From assembly GCF_004376175.1 (NCBI RefSeq), contig NZ_SNUY01000005.1, positions 60,001-92,000 of the forward strand: DNA of 32,000 bases. The letters run 5' to 3'. Below the pieces are notes generated by a model that worked only from the letters and a program-made list of their open reading frames with translations, was not told the DNA's origin and ran no database searches. Both the position numbers and the translations under genes were made by a program. Position 1 is the stretch's first letter; every line of letters begins with the position of its first letter. This stretch comes from Halalkalibacterium halodurans (GTDB taxonomy: Bacteria; Bacillota; Bacilli; Bacillales; Bacillaceae_D). Shown here piece by piece: positions 16,027 through 31,553 of this stretch.

Positions 16027-17268
16027 TTAGGCGCTTGCTGACGTAGAGGCTGCTTTCGCTTTGCTTCTTTTCTCTGACTCATCAATTACAACAGCGCATG
16101 TAGCGTCTCCAGTAATGTTAATGGCTGTACGGGACATATCCAAGATTCGATCAACCGCAAGGACAAGGGCAATTCCCTCCACTGGTAAACCGATGGACTG
16201 CAAGACCATGGCTAGCATGATTAACCCAACGCCAGGAACGCCAGCTGTACCAATACTAGCGAGTGTCGCTGTTAAAACAACCGTGAGCAAATCACCCATC
16301 GAAAGCTGCTGAGCATAAACTTGAGCAATAAATACCGTCGCAACAGCTTGCATGATCGCCGTACCGTCCATGTTAATAGTGGCCCCTAACGGCTGAACAA
16401 AGCTAGAAACAGGCTTAGAGACACCGAGTTTTTCTTGTGCTGTTTTCATGGAGACAGGAAGGACAGCACTACTGCTTGATGTTCCGAAGGCTAACGCCAT
16501 TGCTGGGAAGAAGTTTCGCAAAAATTCGAGCGGGTTTCGCTTCGCAACAAATGCGAGGAAGCCACCATAGGTAATGACTGCATGCAGCAGCAACGCAAGT
16601 AACACGGCTATGACATACATGGCCATTGATCCTAATGCATCAAATCCTAGCTTACCGAGAGCTGAGGCGATTAAGCCAAATGCGCCGTATGGAGCTAACT
16701 TCATCGCAAGGCTCACAAGGTACATCATCACTTCGTTCCCCTGCTCCACGAGTTTTAAAATCCCGCTCGTCTTCTCTCCAAGTCTACCAAGGGCGAGACC
16801 GACTAACACAGCAAACGCAATAATTTGTAGCATTTGTCCTGAAGCTAACGCCTCAATTGGGTTTCTCGGAATAATGTTGAGGATCGTCTCCATGACAGGT
16901 GGTGCTTCCGTCGCTTCAAACTCCTCTTCGACTGTCCCCATTAGTCCAGGCTCTCCAGGTTGTAATACATAGGCAATCGATAGGCCGATGACGAGAGCAA
17001 TCATCGTCGTTAGCAAGTAAAAGCCGACGGTTTTCGACCCAAGTTTCCCTAACTTTTTCGGATCTCCTAGCCCTGCAGTTCCGAGAATAATCGAAAACAA
17101 AACAAGGGGAACGACGAGCATCATAATTAATCTAAGAAATAATTGCCCCACCGGTGTAAAGACGTACGTATCAATAGGTACAAATAAATCTGGTGCAAAT
17201 TTATTCATACCAAGCCCAACTAGAATCCCTAACACGAGGGCAATAATAATCTTCTTCGTTAAACTCAT
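16027..17268 (-). CDS. Dicarboxylate/amino acid:cation symporter (DAACS family, GltP/GltT-like)
   Basis: ATG 17268 lies 8 nt after GAGAGGAG; the GTG 17286 extension lacks an SD. About 413 aa with 8 TM plus re-entrant hairpins and DAACS motifs (SSSSAVLP, NMDGTA, DRILDMSRTAINITGD). Confidence 0.9.
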   Translation of the reverse strand: MSLTKKIIIALVLGILVGLGMNKFAPDLFVPIDTYVFTPVGQLFLRLIMMLVVPLVLFSIILGTAGLGDPKKLGKLGSKTVGFYLLTTMIALVIGLSIAYVLQPGEPGLMGTVEEEFEATEAPPVMETILNIIPRNPIEALASGQMLQIIAFAVLVGLALGRLGEKTSGILKLVEQGNEVMMYLVSLAMKLAPYGAFGLIASALGKLGFDALGSMAMYVIAVLLALLLHAVITYGGFLAFVAKRNPLEFLRNFFPAMALAFGTSSSSAVLPVSMKTAQEKLGVSKPVSSFVQPLGATINMDGTAIMQAVATVFIAQVYAQQLSMGDLLTVVLTATLASIGTAGVPGVGLIMLAMVLQSIGLPVEGIALVLAVDRILDMSRTAINITGDATCAVVIDESEKRSKAKAASTSASA

Positions 17269-17351
17269 ATCATCATCTCCTCTCACAACTGTACACTTTG
17301 CTGCACTACTGTATTAATGCAATAAATATGATAACACATGTTACATTTTAT

Positions 17352-17373: not shown

Positions 17374-17665
17374 AGGCTTGTTAGATATTATGACATAAAA
17401 TTTTTGATAAAGAGTAGATTCATTGGATCGATATTGGCGAAAACCCTCTTCCTCTGCAATGTAAGCCTTGTCAAATAGCCTAACACGCGGGAATGATCGC
17501 GTCAACGACGCTTTTTTCAAAAAATACCCAACATCTCCTCAAACCCCATCTTTCTCCTTTTTTACCAATGGTATTTCAGATAAATAACGTGTTGCCTAGT
17601 CTAAGGTGGAAGCGTTCGTTTTCTTATCCTCCCACTCCTTGATAGAAGGTAGCCTTCCCTAAAGT

Positions 17666-25036: not shown

Positions 25037-26092
25037 TTATTCTCCTTCTTCCTCTCCGATCGGGCGTTGAAGGGGCAGTTCATCCCAAAAAGAAGTATCC
25101 GCCTCCAGAATCGAACCATCAGCAATGGCTTCCATCGCCGCAGTCATGGCAATCTCTGCCTGCTTAATTAAGTAACCATTGCTCTTCTGTCCGAGAACCG
25201 CTTCCTCTCGTGAATGATCAGTCATTCCCCGCATTTCAAAAAGGAGTGTAGAAAACCCATACGTTGACGCTAACCCATTTCGGGCAATCGTATTCGCTGT
25301 GCCACCATTATATCTTCCGATTAAGCCAAAGCCTCGCGCTTCCACTGCATCGTACACAACTTTTCCTAACTGTTTCGAACCTTCGACCACCTCGGGAGTG
25401 ACACTTGAATTGGTCGGGTAAAGCATCGACCCTGACACATAACGGCCATCAATCGCTTGTGATGTGCCTTGGTGATGAAAATCAATCAAATAATCAATGT
25501 CATACTTTTGCAATACATTTTCGTGTAAAGCCCTCGTTTCCGGTTGGGTTAAATCCGTATGATCACGATTTAAGTCGACTCCGTTGGCATTCGTTCGTGT
25601 CGAAAGCCCACCACCCACGTAATCTTCTAACTCAAAAAGCACGTCTGCCTCTGCCCCATCAGGATTTAAGCGAGGGACAAACAAAACGTTGACGCTATCT
25701 GCCAACTCGCGTACTTGGCGACTATTCGTGCTTAAATTTTTTATGACGTTTAAGGCCCCTTCTGTGACCATCTCTTCATTTCCATGCTGCTGGGTTAGAA
25801 AAACAATCGTTGGATTATCAGGGTTCGTACCAAACGTGACGAGAAACAAGTCCCGCCCCATAACCGATTGACCAATTGTCTCTAGCTCTAGCAAATCAGA
25901 GCGAGATGTCACATGTTCTAGAAAGGAGACCATTTCTTCATAGTTCTTGACTCGCTCCTTCTTAATCGTCTCGTTCCCATTATAGTTTGGGCCATTACCT
26001 ACAGCAAACGCTTGCTGTATTCCACTTGGAACGACAAACAGACTGAGAATAAGAAAAAGACCACTAATTGCCTTCATCCATGCTTTCGCCAC
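25037..26092 (-). CDS. Secreted zinc carboxypeptidase, peptidase family M14
   Basis: 351 aa. GTG start 8 nt after GGGAGGAA. Signal peptide ending AFA|V. M14 zinc motif HxxE (QQHGNEEM), NPDG and a downstream His (IDFHHQG). Confidence 0.85.
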   Translation of the reverse strand: MAKAWMKAISGLFLILSLFVVPSGIQQAFAVGNGPNYNGNETIKKERVKNYEEMVSFLEHVTSRSDLLELETIGQSVMGRDLFLVTFGTNPDNPTIVFLTQQHGNEEMVTEGALNVIKNLSTNSRQVRELADSVNVLFVPRLNPDGAEADVLFELEDYVGGGLSTRTNANGVDLNRDHTDLTQPETRALHENVLQKYDIDYLIDFHHQGTSQAIDGRYVSGSMLYPTNSSVTPEVVEGSKQLGKVVYDAVEARGFGLIGRYNGGTANTIARNGLASTYGFSTLLFEMRGMTDHSREEAVLGQKSNGYLIKQAEIAMTAAMEAIADGSILEADTSFWDELPLQRPIGEEEGE

Positions 26093-26352
26093 CGTCCATT
26101 CCTCCCTTGGTTTATGGTATATGAACGGTTACGACGTAAGAAGGAGAAACCCTTTGCCCTTCTTAAAAATTAAGTGAAAGGTACTAGCCTAACATATAGA
26201 ACGGCGTACCATCCTACCTGCACCTCTGTCATTTATTTGAATATGCGATTGGCTCGATCTAATGTTCCACTTTTGATCAACCCTGGTGAAAAAGCGAAAA
26301 ATAACACGTCCCAGACCGAACGTAAACATAGGATTGATCTTTTTTGAACGTG

Positions 26353-26390
26353 CAAAATCGTCCTTGATGGCAGATGCCTACAAGGACGAT
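26353..26390 (-). terminator. Terminator of the amt-NTase-exonuclease operon
   Basis: Perfect 10-bp stem atcgtccttg/caaggacgat (26357-26366 with 26381-26390) abutting the exonuclease stop. Followed on the minus strand by TTTTG. Confidence 0.55.
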
Positions 26391-27121
26391 TATTTACGCT
26401 GATGAGCCAAATGGACATAAATGTCTCTTAGCGTTTCAAAACCTGCCTCTTTCGCAGCAGCGATGGCCGCTATCCATAGCTTCGCTGTCATTAGGGAGTC
26501 TTCAAGAGCATGATGACGATTTTGTACAGGAATGGAATAATAGGCACAGCAATCATCAAGGGTGACCAGCTCTTGCGGTGCCACTATTTTCGTTAAAAAC
26601 GATGTATCAATCACTCGGTGCTCAAAAGGAAGCTTCATCGTTTGCCAAGTGACATGGGACATAAACGCTTTTTCATGACTGGCATGGTGGGCCACGAGCG
26701 TCGAATGACGAATGAACGCATAAAACGATTCAAGCACGCTCGTTAATGGAGGAGCAGCCTCCAGTTCTTCCACGCTCAAACCTGTTAATTCGAGGATGTT
26801 TTCAGGGGGAACTGTATCGGTATGGACGACAGAATAAAATGTTTCCTCCTCCTGAATCGTTAATCCAACAACTTTGACAGCACCAATCGACAAAATCCGA
26901 TCCCCTTGGTCTGGATAAAAGCCGCTTGTCTCCAAATCAAAAACGACGACGGGCAGCTTTTCTAACGGGAGATCCAATACGTCAGATCGCCTTATCTCCC
27001 GTTGCAGCTGTCTGACGTAAGACCATTGTTGAGCAGAGGAAGGTGCCTGAGCCGATGTATAGACATTCGGGCTCAATTTCGAGGATAACTGCTTCATTAG
27101 CTGTACCATTTGATTCATCAT
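26390..27121 (-). CDS. DnaQ-like 3'-5' exonuclease (DEDDh family)
   Basis: The ATG at 27121 overlaps the upstream TGA (ATGA). Exo I VVFDLETSG, Exo II-like LVAHHASHEKAF, Exo III HHALEDSLMTAKLW. A roughly 55-aa non-catalytic N-terminal leader precedes the domain. The ORF-track start 27187 would overlap the upstream gene by 70 nt. Confidence 0.85.
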   Translation of the reverse strand: MMNQMVQLMKQLSSKLSPNVYTSAQAPSSAQQWSYVRQLQREIRRSDVLDLPLEKLPVVVFDLETSGFYPDQGDRILSIGAVKVVGLTIQEEETFYSVVHTDTVPPENILELTGLSVEELEAAPPLTSVLESFYAFIRHSTLVAHHASHEKAFMSHVTWQTMKLPFEHRVIDTSFLTKIVAPQELVTLDDCCAYYSIPVQNRHHALEDSLMTAKLWIAAIAAAKEAGFETLRDIYVHLAHQRK

Positions 27122-28128
27122 AACGACCATTCCCTTTTCACAGCTTCCTCGACTGAACGGTATAATTTGTGCCCTGTGACCGTCCATGCTTTTAACTCAT
27201 TCCGTTCGTCTTTCGTTAACTGTGTGAGATCAAGATAATGAATTCGCTCATAATTGGGTACATCTTGCTGCCACTCCAATCGTTTGGACAGCAATTGCTC
27301 AAACATTCGCTTTGTTTCATAGACGTCCAAATAACGATCTCGAATCGCTTCATATCTGGCGACTGTTGGAGCCGCTGTAATCTGCTCTTTTAAGGCTAAT
27401 AGCCGTAGTGCGTTCACATACGGAAACAACGTTACTTGCTTAATATCGAACAGTCCTCTAGCTGTACCCTTTGATTCAACGAGCAACTGTCCGAACAGAC
27501 CGATCCCCTTTTTTAGTCGTTCGGTGTTTTGCATAAATCGTTTTAACAGCTGACGATTCGTTTCGATGCGCTGTAGCAAGTTCACCTTGACGTCTTCCAT
27601 TAAATTGGCATCCCCAACGAGAGGGCGCCCATCGAAAAACGTTAACAAATGGCGATAGGCTTCCCACGTGTTTTCTTTCATCCATCGTTGCTGCTGATCA
27701 TGCCAAGCCGCTTGACTGCAACACCAGCGCGGATGTGAAGCCATGACCAGCCCATCACACCGTTCATAGCCGACTTTGGCTAGCCCCTCCTCAATTTCAC
27801 GGCCTAGAGCTAAAAAATAAGCTTGATTGTCATCATGCTCCTCTAAGTAAAGAAGACCGTGATCTTGATCGCTCCAAATTGACTGTTCCATTCGGCCGGC
27901 ACTGCCCATCACAAAGAACACAAAGTGAGTAGGAGGTGCCCCCCACTCACTTTCGATTCGTTGTAGTGCTAGTGCAACGACTTGTTTGATGATCTCATCA
28001 TGACAATGGTTTAACGTCTGATGATCCTTTTTTGTAGAGCTAATCAAGGTCAGCCGATGTTGCAAAAGTTCACCATAACTGTCCGCTGCACGGATAATGC
28101 TCAGATCATCCGACCTTTTCTGAGCCAT
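27118..28128 (-). CDS. DUF294-type nucleotidyltransferase with DUF294_C substrate-binding domain (GlnD-NTase-like), no sensor domains
   Basis: 336 aa. Pol-beta-fold NTase signature FFVMGSAGRMEQSIWSDQDHGLLY, followed by a helical C-terminal half. The ATG lies 2 nt after the amt stop, with an AGGAG SD inside the amt 3' end. Confidence 0.82.
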   Translation of the reverse strand: MAQKRSDDLSIIRAADSYGELLQHRLTLISSTKKDHQTLNHCHDEIIKQVVALALQRIESEWGAPPTHFVFFVMGSAGRMEQSIWSDQDHGLLYLEEHDDNQAYFLALGREIEEGLAKVGYERCDGLVMASHPRWCCSQAAWHDQQQRWMKENTWEAYRHLLTFFDGRPLVGDANLMEDVKVNLLQRIETNRQLLKRFMQNTERLKKGIGLFGQLLVESKGTARGLFDIKQVTLFPYVNALRLLALKEQITAAPTVARYEAIRDRYLDVYETKRMFEQLLSKRLEWQQDVPNYERIHYLDLTQLTKDERNELKAWTVTGHKLYRSVEEAVKREWSL

Positions 28129-28130
28129 CT

Positions 28131-29396
28131 TTATGCTCCTGATTTTTCGGAACCTGGCATGCTTTCAGGATATCCGTAGCTTCCATGCTCACTTAAGTCA
28201 AGACCAATGATTTCTTCTTCTTCTGTTACACGAAGACCACCGAGTACAGACTTACATACAAGGAGTAGTACGTATGAAGCGATAAAAGCGAACACACCAC
28301 AAGCGACAACGCTCAACGTTTGAACGCCTAATTGTGCAAAACCACCGCCGTAGAACAAGCCCGCTTGACCACCGTTCATCTCTGCAAGCTCAGGAGTGGC
28401 AAAGAACCCTGTAGAAAGTGTCCCCCACACCCCGGCCACACCATGGACCGAGAGAGCAAAGATTGGGTCATCAATTTTCGCTTTATCGAAAAATTTCATG
28501 CTGAAGTAAACGATAAGTCCACCAACAATTCCGATGACAACTGCGGCCCACGGCGCAACGAACGCACATGACGCTGTGATCGCAACAAGACCAGCTAATG
28601 CTCCATTTAAGGTTGTCGGTACATCTGCTTTTCCTGATAGAGCCCATGCAATGAACATGGCAGCGACTGCACCTGCAGCGGCAGCAAGCTGAGTATTTAA
28701 CGCAACATAACCGAAGAATGCGTCGGCCACTTCTAGCGTACTACCTGCGTTGAAGCCGAACCAACCGACCCAAAGAAGCAATACACCCAATGCTGTATAC
28801 ACTTGGTTGTGACCTTGAATATCGTTCATCGAGCCATCTTTGTTGTATTTGCCTAAACGCGGCTTTAATAAGATCGTAGCTGCTAGAGCCCCCATCGCAC
28901 CCGTTAAGTGAACGACGGTCGATCCTGCAAAGTCTTGTTTTCCTAAGTCAGCAAGCCAGCCATCTCCCCAAATCCAGTGAGCGACAATTGGATAAACGAA
29001 TGCAGAAAACAAAACCGCAAACAGGATATAGACTGATAGCTTCGCACGCTCCGCAAATCCACCAAACGCAATCGTGAGCGCAATGGCAGCGAACATTAAT
29101 TGGAAAAAGAAATCGACCGAGCCGACTAGTCCCTCTTCAGCCGTTGAGTAATCGCCGAAGAAGAAATCAGAAAGACCGATAAAAGCGTTCCCCTCTCCGT
29201 AAGTGAACCCCCAGCCTACTGCCCAATAAACGAGGGATGCAATCCCAACTGTAAAAATCGTTTTTCCGGCAATATGACCAGCGTTCTTCATTCTTGTTGA
29301 GCCAGCTTCAAGTAAAATAAATCCACCTTGCATTAACAAAACAAGAACGGCACATAGCATAATCCACACGTTATCCATTAAAGCAATGGAATCCAT
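28131..29396 (-). CDS. amt: Ammonium transporter (Amt/AmtB/NrgA family)
   Basis: 421 aa with 11 TM. Amt signature regions (DFAGSTVVHLTGA, FGFNAGS, ALSVHGVAGVWG with the twin-His pore). GGGGAGGAG SD. Confidence 0.95.
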   Translation of the reverse strand: MDSIALMDNVWIMLCAVLVLLMQGGFILLEAGSTRMKNAGHIAGKTIFTVGIASLVYWAVGWGFTYGEGNAFIGLSDFFFGDYSTAEEGLVGSVDFFFQLMFAAIALTIAFGGFAERAKLSVYILFAVLFSAFVYPIVAHWIWGDGWLADLGKQDFAGSTVVHLTGAMGALAATILLKPRLGKYNKDGSMNDIQGHNQVYTALGVLLLWVGWFGFNAGSTLEVADAFFGYVALNTQLAAAAGAVAAMFIAWALSGKADVPTTLNGALAGLVAITASCAFVAPWAAVVIGIVGGLIVYFSMKFFDKAKIDDPIFALSVHGVAGVWGTLSTGFFATPELAEMNGGQAGLFYGGGFAQLGVQTLSVVACGVFAFIASYVLLLVCKSVLGGLRVTEEEEIIGLDLSEHGSYGYPESMPGSEKSGA

Positions 29397-29458
29397 ATAG
29401 CCTCTCCTCCCCTTTGTTACTGTAAGTTTTTCTAATATGAACAGTTGATGTACTCCTT

Positions 29459-29512
29459 ATTATAAGGTCTAAATATTCTGAATCTACAACCATGTCAGAT
29501 AATCAGACATGG
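29459..29512 (-). promoter_or_regulatory. amt promoter: TATAAT -10 plus a TnrA/GlnR-type box centred near -49
   Basis: 23-bp palindrome CCATGTCAGATAATCAGACATGG (29490-29512; 10 of 11 pairs). Its 17-mer core TGTCAGATAATCAGACA matches TGTNAN7TNACA except for one position. Exactly 25 nt separate it from a minus-strand TATAAT (29464-29459). Confidence 0.45.
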
Positions 29513-29533
29513 TATTTTGTGCCTATATCTGAC

Positions 29534-29547
29534 ATTAAGCGCTTACA
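29534..29547. promoter_or_regulatory. cre-like element TGTAAGCGCTTAAT in the amt / orf113 divergent region
   Basis: The minus strand reads TGTAAGCGCTTAAT, matching 12 of 14 positions of TGWAANCGNTNWCA. It contains the 10-bp palindrome TAAGCGCTTA. Confidence 0.3.
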
Positions 29548-29641
29548 GTTTGATTGTGACAGTCATTGACGTACCAATTGTTTTCAGTCGAAAAAAATGG
29601 ACAAACAAGCTAAAATAGAGGAGGAGAGGGAGTGAAAAACA

Positions 29642-29983
29642 ATGTTCATTGATGTCTTTGTCCCTTATTCATTCGTGTTGCGGATACGTCAACAGCACTC
29701 CACCGAGATGGCAACCGTTTCGTTAACGCTGATCGAGCGAACATTTGGCAAGAAAAATGGCCGCTGGACACAAACGACGACATCCCTTGTCTCAACGGGA
29801 AAAGCATTCTCAATCGACGAGCTAGATCTTCCACAAAGCTGGCAGCTAGAGCTAGCATCAAACGAAGGAAGATTCGAAATAGATCAGCCGATTCGACGAG
29901 ATTGGTTTGACGAATATAAGTACGCTTCACCAGAACGACTTTGGGAACTTTGTAAGAAGCTCTATCCAGCCCTTAGCCTGTAA
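29642..29983 (+). CDS. Hypothetical 113-aa protein (no recognisable family)
   Basis: Very strong SD (GAGGAGGAGAGGGAG) 9 nt before the ATG and its own terminator. Soluble and Trp-rich. Not a PII protein. Confidence 0.5.
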   Translation: MFIDVFVPYSFVLRIRQQHSTEMATVSLTLIERTFGKKNGRWTQTTTSLVSTGKAFSIDELDLPQSWQLELASNEGRFEIDQPIRRDWFDEYKYASPERLWELCKKLYPALSL

Positions 29984-29984
29984 G

Positions 29985-30017
29985 ACAGTTGCCCTTGTTT
30001 GGGGTAGCTGTTTTTTG
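29985..30017 (+). terminator. Intrinsic terminator after orf113
   Basis: 10-bp stem (two G-U pairs) acagttgccc/ggg(g)tagctgt with a 7-nt loop, then T6 (30011-30016). Confidence 0.65.
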
Positions 30018-30113
30018 TTTCATTCGAGTTAAACTCTAGCGATGGGCGTATGGCACCTCCCATAACGAAGCGCATATATTGAAAGAGACTCTTACATCAA
30101 GGAAGGAGATACT

Positions 30114-31553
30114 ATGGCGATCATTAAGGGAAGTGACTATCTCGAGAGAATTAATAAGCTCCAGAATGAAGTATGGATTGGCGGAGAAAAAGTGACAGGG
30201 GCCATTTCAGAGCATCCTGCCTTTAAAGGCATTATGAAAAGCAAAGCTGCCTTGTATGACCTCTATCACCATTCGGATAAAAAGGATTTGCTCACATGTT
30301 GGGATGAAAAAACAAACGAGTATCATTCTTTTTCCTATTCTCAACCAAAAACAAAAGAGCAGCTTCGCAATCGCCGACAAGCGACACAACTTCTCGCACG
30401 AGAGAGCGGTGGAACAATGGGGCGATCTCCCGATTACATTAATACAGCCATCATGTCTCTCGGTAGTGGAGGAGTTGGAATGCCCAAACCTTACGGAGAC
30501 AACGCGCGAAAAATATTTGAAGAAGCAAGGGAAAAAGACTTCTCCTTTACCCACACGTTTATTAATCCTCAAGTGAATCGCTCTAAGCACTACGTGGAGT
30601 ATTCTAATGAAAAAATTATAGGTGCAAAGGTGATTGACGAAACGGAAGAAGGCGCCATCATCCATGGGGCACGACTCTTAGCGACCCAAGGGGGAATTAC
30701 CGATCAACTCCTCGTCCTGCCTGCCGGGGGTAATTTTATCGAGCCTTCGTTTGTGTATGGATTTGCTATTCCTTCCAACACTCCTGGCTTAAAGTTTCTT
30801 TGTCGTGAATCGTACGCACACGGTAAAACAAGCAGCTATGATTACCCATTAACGAGTCATTTTGAAGAAGGGGACGCCGTTGTTGTGTTCGATCATGTTC
30901 TCGTTCCTTGGGAGCGAATATTCATCTACAGCGACCCGTCCCAAGTTCAGACGATGTATGATGAAACGAACATGAACGTATTACTGCTCTATCAAGCAGT
31001 CAGCCGACAAGCGGTTAAGTCTGAATGGCTTCTTGGACTAAGCGAATGGATGGTGCGAACGATAAATGTTGTTGAACACCAACACATTCATGAAAAAATG
31101 AGCGAAATGATTATAAGTCTTGAGATCATGAATTCCCTTCTGATTGCAGCAGAAGAAGAGGCTCAGCCAAATAAGCACGGGACGATGATTCCAGACATTC
31201 GCAAATTGGGGGCCGCCTGCAGCTATTATCAAAAAACGTATCCTCGCCTCGTCGATGCACTGCAACAAATCGGTGCTAGCGGGTTTATCTCCTTACCGTC
31301 TGAAGCCGATTTCCATTCATCCATTAAGGAAGATCTCCATCAATATTTGCAAGCAGCCAATGAAGATGCCTATGAGCGGGTGCGCATGTTTCGCCTTGCG
31401 TGGGATTTAACAATGAGCCCGTTTGGATCGAGACAAACGCAATACGAACGTTTTTTCTTCGGTGATCAAGTTCGACTATCTAGTTCTCTTTATATGAACT
31501 ATCCAAAAGAACCATTCGTACAGCAAGTGCAATCGTTTTTAAAAAAACGTTGA
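30114..31553 (+). CDS. 4-hydroxyphenylacetate 3-monooxygenase oxygenase-component family (HpaB-type FADH2-dependent aromatic hydroxylase)
   Basis: 479 aa. N-terminus and length are typical of the HpaB/PheA1 family (GSDYLERINKLQNEVWIGGEKV, GRSPDYINT, FTHTFINPQVNRS). AGGAGA SD. No flavin reductase partner in the window. Confidence 0.85.
   Translation: MAIIKGSDYLERINKLQNEVWIGGEKVTGAISEHPAFKGIMKSKAALYDLYHHSDKKDLLTCWDEKTNEYHSFSYSQPKTKEQLRNRRQATQLLARESGGTMGRSPDYINTAIMSLGSGGVGMPKPYGDNARKIFEEAREKDFSFTHTFINPQVNRSKHYVEYSNEKIIGAKVIDETEEGAIIHGARLLATQGGITDQLLVLPAGGNFIEPSFVYGFAIPSNTPGLKFLCRESYAHGKTSSYDYPLTSHFEEGDAVVVFDHVLVPWERIFIYSDPSQVQTMYDETNMNVLLLYQAVSRQAVKSEWLLGLSEWMVRTINVVEHQHIHEKMSEMIISLEIMNSLLIAAEEEAQPNKHGTMIPDIRKLGAACSYYQKTYPRLVDALQQIGASGFISLPSEADFHSSIKEDLHQYLQAANEDAYERVRMFRLAWDLTMSPFGSRQTQYERFFFGDQVRLSSSLYMNYPKEPFVQQVQSFLKKR

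Follow-up and report, generated by a model that had tools for sequence, protein, structure and literature searches.

In a 32,000-nucleotide stretch of the Halalkalibacterium halodurans genome (contig NZ_SNUY01000005.1, positions 60,001 to 92,000; assembly GCF_004376175.1; hereafter the window), the gene for the ammonium transporter Amt is followed, back to back on the minus strand, by genes for a DUF294 nucleotidyltransferase (open reading frame 2, ORF2) and a DEDDh exonuclease (ORF3), in the order amt-ORF2-ORF3. The three genes constitute a translationally coupled cassette, and the two enzymes that it encodes probably act as an on/off switch for transporters. The form of such a switch that is developed here, reversible protein nucleotidylylation that is tied to the co-encoded transporter and that occupies the place held by GlnK in Bacillus subtilis, is plausible if short of probable; we infer its chemistry, its target, and the direction of regulation from the comparisons that follow. 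Control of AmtB by PII proteins is the textbook paradigm, and we know of no account of how the many Firmicutes that carry amt without PII prevent futile ammonium cycling. The cassette is thus a concrete and testable candidate for the control of ammonium uptake in PII-less Bacillales.

The coupling of the three genes is evident from their junctions. The ATG of ORF2 lies 2 nt past the amt stop codon and is preceded at 7 nt by an AGGAG Shine-Dalgarno motif within the final amt codons, while the TGA of ORF2 (27120-27118) shares 4 nt with the ATG of ORF3 (ATGA, 27121-27118). The ORF2 protein is 100% identical to an H. halodurans entry at NCBI. The mechanical open reading frame of ORF3 begins at 27187; its true start is 27121 or 27118, because homologues begin with MMNQM or MNxM in the alignment. 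The gene coordinates, the stop and start spacing, the Shine-Dalgarno motif, and the ATGA overlap had all been given in an original prediction made from the letters of the window, and all hold on the sequence. The gene layout suggests that the cassette is co-transcribed. The same prediction had placed the only terminator after the third gene, and a strong hairpin does follow ORF3 directly: it has an 11-bp stem with three further inner pairs (dG -25.1 kcal/mol, z -6.05), and none of 200 shuffled sequences was equally stable. Its U run is short, and it was passed over by the consensus scanner because its loop is long. Overlooked, in turn, was a terminator-like hairpin inside ORF2, which is described below.

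A scan of one genome per species returned 316 relatives of ORF2, and the loci of the best 80 of these 316 were retrieved. Gene order and strand of amt, DUF294, and exonuclease were identical in all 80 loci, all from Bacillaceae, and junctions between the cassette genes were short or overlapping throughout. Identity to the window proteins ranged from 69 to 91% for Amt, from 41 to 53% for DUF294, and from 43 to 74% for the exonuclease. Five of five further loci, from two Paenibacillus species, B. methanolicus, Oceanobacillus caeni, and Fictibacillus, also carried the cassette, and its order was kept in Paenibacillus with a DUF294 protein only about 33% identical to ORF2. The orthologues therefore track amt, as had been proposed, in 85 of the 85 other short-form loci examined in Bacillaceae and Paenibacillaceae. 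Carriers span Bacillaceae, Geobacillus-type thermophiles, Paenibacillus (including nitrogen-fixing species), and Brevibacillus. When a divergent short form (P0164) served as the query of a further homologue search, the matches came from Bacillaceae only, with no short-form, amt-linked member outside of Bacillales; as far as these searches extend, the sensor-less, amt-linked form appears to be confined to this order. In O. caeni, the cassette forms part of a longer row of genes that all point the same way, glnA-asnB-amt-DUF294-exo-purA-purB (L094, 255-9420). One Bacillaceae metagenome-assembled genome carries two cassette copies (L008 and L009), in one of which amt and the exonuclease gene are split into several frames, which could reflect pseudogenisation or assembly error.

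As predicted, ORF3 matches the RNase_T family (PF00929, E 2.6e-24), and it also scores 376.7 bits against the NCBIfam equivalog NF005836 (cutoff 261), which is named only as a hypothetical protein. The Exo residues D62, E64, H203, and D208 are invariant in the alignment, in agreement with the Exo motifs recognized earlier, though Bacillaceae have a Glu as the Exo II carboxylate, where Asp is usual; the residue is Asp in Paenibacillus and in the partners of long-form DUF294 proteins. About 55 aa at the N-terminus of ORF3 form a conserved extension. ORF3 falls well short of the proofreading equivalogs (84.9 bits for dnaQ_proteo, cutoff 222.7; 92 bits for PolC, cutoff 873), and these scores speak against orthology to Pol III epsilon or to the PolC proofreading domain. 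That the linkage is devoid of regulatory meaning, with a repair-type exonuclease and an unrelated nucleotidyltransferase simply riding on a nitrogen-regulated promoter, is most improbable. Such an explanation could appeal to the resemblance of ORF3 to PolC and DnaQ proofreading domains, but not to the distance of ORF3 from the equivalog cutoffs, to synteny in 85 of 85 loci across families with translational coupling, to the recurrence of the pair beside other transporters across phyla, or to the existence of a fusion protein that joins both enzymes in one chain.

ORF2 is composed of a nucleotidyltransferase core and a helical C-terminal domain, matched by PF03445 (E 3.6e-33, 114.8 bits, threshold 21) and PF10335 (E 5.2e-22, 78.7 bits, threshold 22.5), respectively. 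Both families were likewise matched by all 37 aligned ORF2 relatives. No cNMP-binding and no CBS domain was detected in the Pfam scan of ORF2, and its 336 aa hold only the two DUF294 domains, which bears out the short, sensor-less architecture that had been expected. The pol-beta nucleotidyltransferase signature comprises G75-S76 and S86-D87-Q88-D89 together with a third carboxylate at position 125; among the 37 aligned sequences, G75, S76, D87, and D89 are invariant and position 125 is D or E. An AlphaFold2 model built with these 37 sequences (pLDDT 93.7, pTM 0.91) was compared with the PDB using Foldseek and yielded four significant matches only, at TM of about 0.6. These were two chains of the GlnE adenylylation domain AT-C (3k7d; E 9e-8 and 2.6e-7), the GlnE deadenylylation domain AT-N (1v4a; E 2e-6; TMq 0.57-0.63 for GlnE), and the Rab-AMPylase DrrA (E 4e-6, TM 0.62). 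The proposed kinship to GlnD and GlnE is therefore supported at the level of the fold. At the level of sequence, PF03710 (GlnE) remained below threshold in ORF2 (E 0.027, 14.3 bits, cutoff 24), and it was the commonest sub-threshold Pfam match in the family (13 of 37 members). Pfam found in ORF2 neither ACT sensors nor a further domain for catalysis or removal, such as an HD domain or the AT-N/AT-C duplication. The C-terminal domain, DUF294_C, has been placed with the helical domain of GlnD and GlnE (Anantharaman et al., 2013; PMC3710099). With an AMPylase-like fold and no match in sequence, ORF2 thus resembles a minimal module of the GlnE/GlnD type that lies outside of those families by sequence criteria.

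This predicted fold also bears on two explanations in which the substrate is not a protein. In the first, the nucleotidyltransferase would make a small nucleotide signal, a linear or cyclic oligonucleotide, that is received by the transporter or by its regulator and degraded by the exonuclease. The pairing of a synthase with a hydrolase is the standard layout of second-messenger systems, an architecture in which cNMP, CBS, PAS, or Cache sensors precede DUF294 as the output is typical of second-messenger enzymes, and DEDDh enzymes such as oligoribonuclease degrade dinucleotides. This explanation is nevertheless rather unlikely given that CD-NTase structures are poor matches to ORF2 (E > 0.2, TM about 0.2), that the C-terminal helical domain is a substrate-binding module of the GlnD/GlnE type, and that Amt has no evident receptor domain. 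Nor was ORF2 matched by PADLOC, which covers CBASS and other anti-phage systems and matched ORF3 only to generic DEDDh models. In the second, the pair would act on RNA, the nucleotidyltransferase adding 3' tails and the exonuclease trimming them, to set the stability of the mRNA of the transporter operon or of another RNA. The pol-beta superfamily does include poly(A) and poly(U) polymerases, DEDDh proteins are true 3'-5' exonucleases, ORF2 contains a conserved hairpin, and degradation of mRNA has been speculated upon for the Pseudomonas putida pair (PMC9927547). Against this stand the weak matches of the model to TUTase and poly(A) polymerase structures (E >= 0.1, TM about 0.2), the lack of a detectable RNA-binding domain, and an Rfam scan of positions 26000-30200 that returned no element at E <= 1, such that an action on RNA is judged quite unlikely. 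More generally, RNA uridylyltransferases, aminoglycoside nucleotidyltransferases, and CD-NTases all had E > 0.09 against the ORF2 model, and the modeled AMPylase-like fold together with the HEPN-type substrate domain weighs against both a nucleotide signal and RNA tailing.

The wider DUF294 family places the cassette in a broader context. A full HMMER search yielded 2,764 DUF294 clusters at 50% identity, with architectures that include the short form, a cNMP-CBS-DUF294 long form, forms with Cache, PAS, and CBS domains, and one fusion with the exonuclease. The latter (P0223) is a single CBS-DUF294-DUF294_C-RNase_T chain, and in three proteins of the architecture PHP-Cache-PAS-CBS-DUF294 (P0217, P0233, and P0240), a PHP phosphoesterase is fused in place of the exonuclease partner. 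Ten long-form loci on plasmids and chromids were sampled. A DEDDh exonuclease was present at nine of them, and at seven (from P. aeruginosa, Ruegeria, Skermanella, two Paracoccus species, Agrobacterium, and Salinivibrio) an SSS-family symporter, either ActP with DUF485, an SSS protein with DUF4212, or a Na+/sugar symporter, was encoded directly upstream on the same strand. These seven loci point to a general layout of secondary transporter, DUF294 protein, and exonuclease, in which Amt is the transporter of Bacillales. The statement in the original prediction that such pairs sit beside actP and acs in Proteobacteria was correct; its reading of the pair as a nitrogen-regulated alternative to PII needs widening, because a module that also follows acetate and sugar symporters looks like a general transporter-coupled module rather than a nitrogen-sensing analogue of PII. 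A function solved in one system could be extended to this large DUF family, with its roughly 2,700 clusters at 50% identity.

At several of the alphaproteobacterial loci, a conserved small open reading frame of 165-193 aa without a Pfam match lies between DUF294 and the exonuclease (L083, 6908-7426; L087, 5460-6041; L090, 5441-5965; L092, 5426-6294), and in Paracoccus a single-domain response regulator is encoded there as well. The exonuclease at these loci is far longer (479-659 aa), with RNase_T at its C-terminus. The small protein and the response regulator could be adaptors or targets.

The long-form pairs (COG2905-type; PA3233/PA3232 in P. aeruginosa and pp_0354/pp_0353 in P. putida) share with the cassette a homologous nucleotidyltransferase (25-31% identity) and a DEDDh partner whose genes are overlapping or adjacent, directly behind a secondary transporter with which they are co-regulated (about 16-fold on propionate; MxtR/ErdR target). 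They differ in having cNMP and CBS sensors of their own, in the transporter (ActP or another SSS member), and in being controlled through a two-component system, not through TnrA/GlnR. The response to propionate was seen in P. aeruginosa, where the genes of the PA3232-PA3235 cluster are induced together about 16-fold (PMC9765439), and in P. putida, pp_0354 (DUF294) and pp_0353 (exonuclease) form an operon controlled by ErdR (PMC9927547). Deletion of pp_0353 impaired growth on pyruvate in the same manner as deletion of actP-I, whereas deletion of pp_0354 caused no pyruvate growth defect (PMC9927547). This is the pattern expected if the nucleotidyltransferase inhibits the transporter and the exonuclease relieves that inhibition; the fit is no proof. 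No biochemical function assigned to a DUF294-exonuclease pair was found in the literature searched. The earlier statement that no characterised example exists therefore stands as regards function, although it had missed both a table footnote from 2012 that records the amtB-DUF294-dnaQ operon (PMC3412718) and the proteobacterial pair with mutant phenotypes from 2022 (PMC9927547).

The absence of PII from the cassette is consistent across the loci. Three PII queries, validated against PF00543, gave no match at E <= 1 in the window or in 95 loci (1.48 Mb in total), confirming that the window contains no PII-like open reading frame, and no PII gene was present within 8 kb on either side, let alone beside amt, at any of the 85 other short-form loci. 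A survey by Groot Kormelink et al. (2012; PMC3412718) lists B. halodurans C-125 with one amtB, a tnrA, and neither glnK nor glnR. Among the genomes flagged there for the amtB-DUF294-dnaQ operon, the glnK entry is blank where amtB is single and filled only where extra amtB copies occur. The original prediction had held amt to be almost universally paired with glnK, which is too strong for Bacilli because the same table has many amtB without glnK, including those of the B. cereus group, staphylococci, and lactobacilli (PMC3412718). For P. polymyxa WLY78, the gene that shares a transcript with amtB is given as 'glnK2' (PMC9948412, Table 1); this may be a mislabelled DUF294 gene, because P. polymyxa E681 was recorded in the 2012 survey with a DUF294-dnaQ operon and without glnK (PMC3412718).

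Nitrogen control of the cassette is suggested by its upstream region and by its neighbors. About 67 of the 80 loci have exact TnrA/GlnR-type boxes (TGTNAN7TNACA) ahead of amt, typically in two zones, -105 to -125 and -35 to -50, and GlnR binds the amtB promoter of P. polymyxa (PMC9948412). The TnrA-type box reported previously upstream of amt in the window fared less clearly. The boxes there each carry one mismatch, and such boxes are not rarer than chance in the window (17 found, 13.3 expected), which leaves the significance of the one at 29518-29534 uncertain; those at -113 and -41, on the other hand, occupy positions where most orthologous loci have an exact box. Counted from the inferred transcription start, the box at 29493-29509 has its centre about 49 nt upstream. 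A position of -49 is typical of boxes at TnrA-activated promoters such as that of B. subtilis nrgAB. A further feature of the relatives, newly recognized here, is that a gene of the TnrA/GlnR family adjoins the cassette in most of them (61 of 80 loci). In 55 of the 80, a MerR-type gene of this family lies directly downstream of the exonuclease gene on the same strand (for example, L001, 9749-10099), and seven Neobacillus/Mesobacillus-type loci (L050, L060, L069-L071, L075, and L080) have a bona fide tnrA (176.6 bits, cutoff 140) immediately upstream of amt. A regulator gene of this family was also noted near the cassette at L095 (6768-7067). In the window, neither relaxed tblastn nor blastn detected a degraded TnrA/GlnR-like gene downstream of ORF3; the place of the regulator gene of relatives is taken here by a terminator and an M14 carboxypeptidase gene (25037-26092).

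These neighbors raise another possibility, namely that a protein is reversibly nucleotidylylated as proposed but that the target is glutamine synthetase (GS), which would be adenylylated in the manner of GlnE in a lineage regarded as devoid of this modification, or the adjoining TnrA/GlnR-family regulator. The best structural matches of ORF2 are two GlnE domains that act on GS, the regulator gene adjoins the cassette in the 61 loci described above, the O. caeni cassette lies directly behind glnA-asnB, and TnrA of B. subtilis is held at AmtB-GlnK (background cited in PMC3412718). On the other hand, the homologous module lies behind acetate and sugar symporters, where GS and TnrA are irrelevant, and the H. 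halodurans cassette has no adjoining regulator gene. To our knowledge, moreover, GS of the Bacillus type lacks the adenylylation loop. This possibility is accordingly viewed as rather unlikely.

A switch that acts on the transporter itself, or on a protein that gates it, can be outlined as follows. The nucleotidyltransferase, with a catalytic module like that of GlnE, GlnD, and DrrA, would draw on a nucleoside triphosphate and modify a hydroxyl side chain, probably that of a tyrosine, with one or a few nucleotides. The modified protein would be the gate of ammonium uptake, most likely the cytoplasmic face or the C-terminal tail of the co-encoded Amt. As the writer, the nucleotidyltransferase would probably be inhibitory, shutting uptake when intracellular nitrogen rises and thereby avoiding futile NH4+/NH3 cycling. 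The DEDDh enzyme would be the eraser, either cleaving the phosphodiester of Tyr-O-P-5'-NMP or trimming a short oligonucleotide chain in the 3' to 5' direction, such that transport is restored. The pair would then perform at Amt what GlnK performs in B. subtilis, and the cassette would be a sensor-less, Amt-linked version of the widespread module of secondary transporter, DUF294 nucleotidyltransferase, and DEDDh exonuclease. The division into writer and eraser, already put forward in the original prediction and, judged from these comparisons, the best reading available, is suggested because both enzymes are joined in the CBS-DUF294-RNase_T fusion, because a PHP domain can replace the exonuclease, and because the sensors of the long forms are akin to the ACT domains of GlnD. 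A bolder version is more doubtful, though possible: DUF294 and its DEDDh partner would form a widespread and so far unrecognised post-translational switch that acts by reversible (oligo)nucleotidylylation of Amt, of ActP or other SSS members, or of a protein bound to them, the 'exonuclease' would be the first DEDDh protein de-nucleotidylylase, and PII/GlnK would have been replaced in many Bacillales. Solving the pair in one system could also bring to light a new kind of transporter control, and for DEDDh 'exonucleases' an activity of a new type.

The cassette can be set beside the closest known systems. With GlnD (PII uridylyltransferase/uridylyl-removing enzyme) and GlnE (GS adenylyltransferase), ORF2 shares the pol-beta core (G-S-x-G-R-x-E ... 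S-D-x-D) and a helical, HEPN-derived substrate-binding domain, and the family shares with them a writer, a phosphoesterase eraser, ligand sensors (DUF294 long forms only), and genes that are tied to ammonium uptake and assimilation. Unlike those enzymes, ORF2 lacks the HD and ACT domains and the duplication of the nucleotidyltransferase, its short form is sensor-less, erasure would fall to a DEDDh exonuclease encoded on its own or, in some relatives, to a PHP domain, and the cassette has no PII or GS partner gene. The amtB-glnK operon (nrgAB) of B. subtilis and of most prokaryotes similarly begins with amt and has downstream coding that is translationally coupled to it; its upstream TnrA/GlnR-type boxes have exact counterparts at about 67 of the 80 orthologous loci and one-mismatch counterparts in the window. 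The downstream slot of the cassette, however, holds two enzymes instead of a trimeric PII plug, and these two enzymes also follow transporters unrelated to nitrogen. DrrA/SidM is a GlnE-like AMPylase whose mark is removed by a separate hydrolase, SidD. MNT antitoxins add short AMP chains to tyrosine, and chains of this kind could be trimmed by a 3'-5' exonuclease. Neither system has a DEDDh partner, the former being a host-targeting effector system and the latter (MNT-HEPN) a toxin-antitoxin system, and MNT-HEPN structures are only marginal matches to the ORF2 model (E of about 1-2).

The Amt protein of the window is a member of the ammonium transporter family (PF00909, Ammonium_transp, E 5e-119; TIGR00836, 419 bits). 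Its C-terminal tail, GLRVTEEEEIIGLDLSEHGSYGYPE (window positions 28134-28210), is near-invariant: among the sampled Amt proteins that are linked to a cassette, it varies by conservative substitutions alone. The pattern GLRV(T/S)EEEEI.GLD.SEHG.YGYPE is common to these proteins from Bacillaceae to Paenibacillaceae, where the identity of the partner nucleotidyltransferase falls to 33%.

Several points weigh against nucleotidylylation at the transporter. The choice of Amt as the target is a guess, and its conserved tail motif resembles the C-terminal region of E. coli AmtB. We know of no DEDDh enzyme that removes nucleotides from proteins, nor is a biochemical activity known for any DUF294 protein or exonuclease partner. 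The likeness of ORF2 to GlnE and DrrA holds at the level of the fold only, at TM of about 0.6, and searches of PDB sequences with ORF2 alone and with the family profile returned noise only and no relative. The short form has no recognisable sensor domain with which to read nitrogen status. The long-form pairs of Cytobacillus and Hymenobacter have no adjacent transporter. Finally, the authors of the P. putida study consider the mechanism unclear and speculate on mRNA degradation (PMC9927547).

The hairpin inside ORF2 may add a further layer of control. The homologous 48 nt in 78 loci have a mean folding energy of -18.2 kcal/mol compared with -10.6 for synonymous recodings of the same peptide (mean z -2.45, with 87% of the loci below -1). 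Across 77 aligned sequences, the named helix has 82.8% of its cells paired, as opposed to 45-59% for shifted registers, and pair-preserving double changes occur in some cases (e.g., UGG..ACU to CAG..GCU). RNAalifold applied to this alignment gave three pairs only and did not recover the helix, such that support for it comes from the count on the named structure and the test of synonymous recoding. The hairpin is absent from the Neobacillus/Mesobacillus clade. Where present, it may serve as an attenuator within the gene or as a site of processing, and it may lower the expression of both enzymes relative to Amt. Coordinates of the cassette and of the associated features are compiled in Table 1.

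Table 1. Features of the amt-DUF294-exonuclease cassette and related elements in the H. halodurans window.
Feature	Position	Strand	Remarks
amt, ammonium transporter, 421 aa	29396..28131	-	stop TAA 28133-28131; PF00909
ORF2, short-form DUF294 nucleotidyltransferase, 336 aa	28128..27118	-	nucleotidyltransferase core and helical DUF294_C; PF03445 and PF10335
ORF3, DEDDh (DnaQ-like) 3'-5' exonuclease, 243 aa	27121..26390	-	PF00929, NF005836
Terminator-like hairpin directly 3' of ORF3 stop	26391..26356	-	folding and shuffles
Terminator-like hairpin within ORF2	27953..27922	-	14 bp, dG -25.7 kcal/mol, then U-rich Phe codons
TnrA/GlnR-type box, one mismatch, TGTCTGATTATCTGACA	29509..29493	-	starts 113 nt upstream of amt ATG
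Second TnrA-type box, one mismatch, TGTCAGATATAGGCACA	29534..29518	-	
Third TnrA/GlnR-type box, one mismatch	29421..29437	.	-41 from amt ATG
Putative -10 hexamer TATAAT, poor -35 (TTGTAG)	29459..29464	-	inferred; not called by consensus scan
Sodium:dicarboxylate (glutamate-type) symporter gene	16027-17286	-	

Elsewhere in the window, the only two exact TGTNAN7TNACA boxes (17379-17395 and 17469-17485) precede the gene for the sodium:dicarboxylate symporter, a likely member of the TnrA regulon in H. halodurans.

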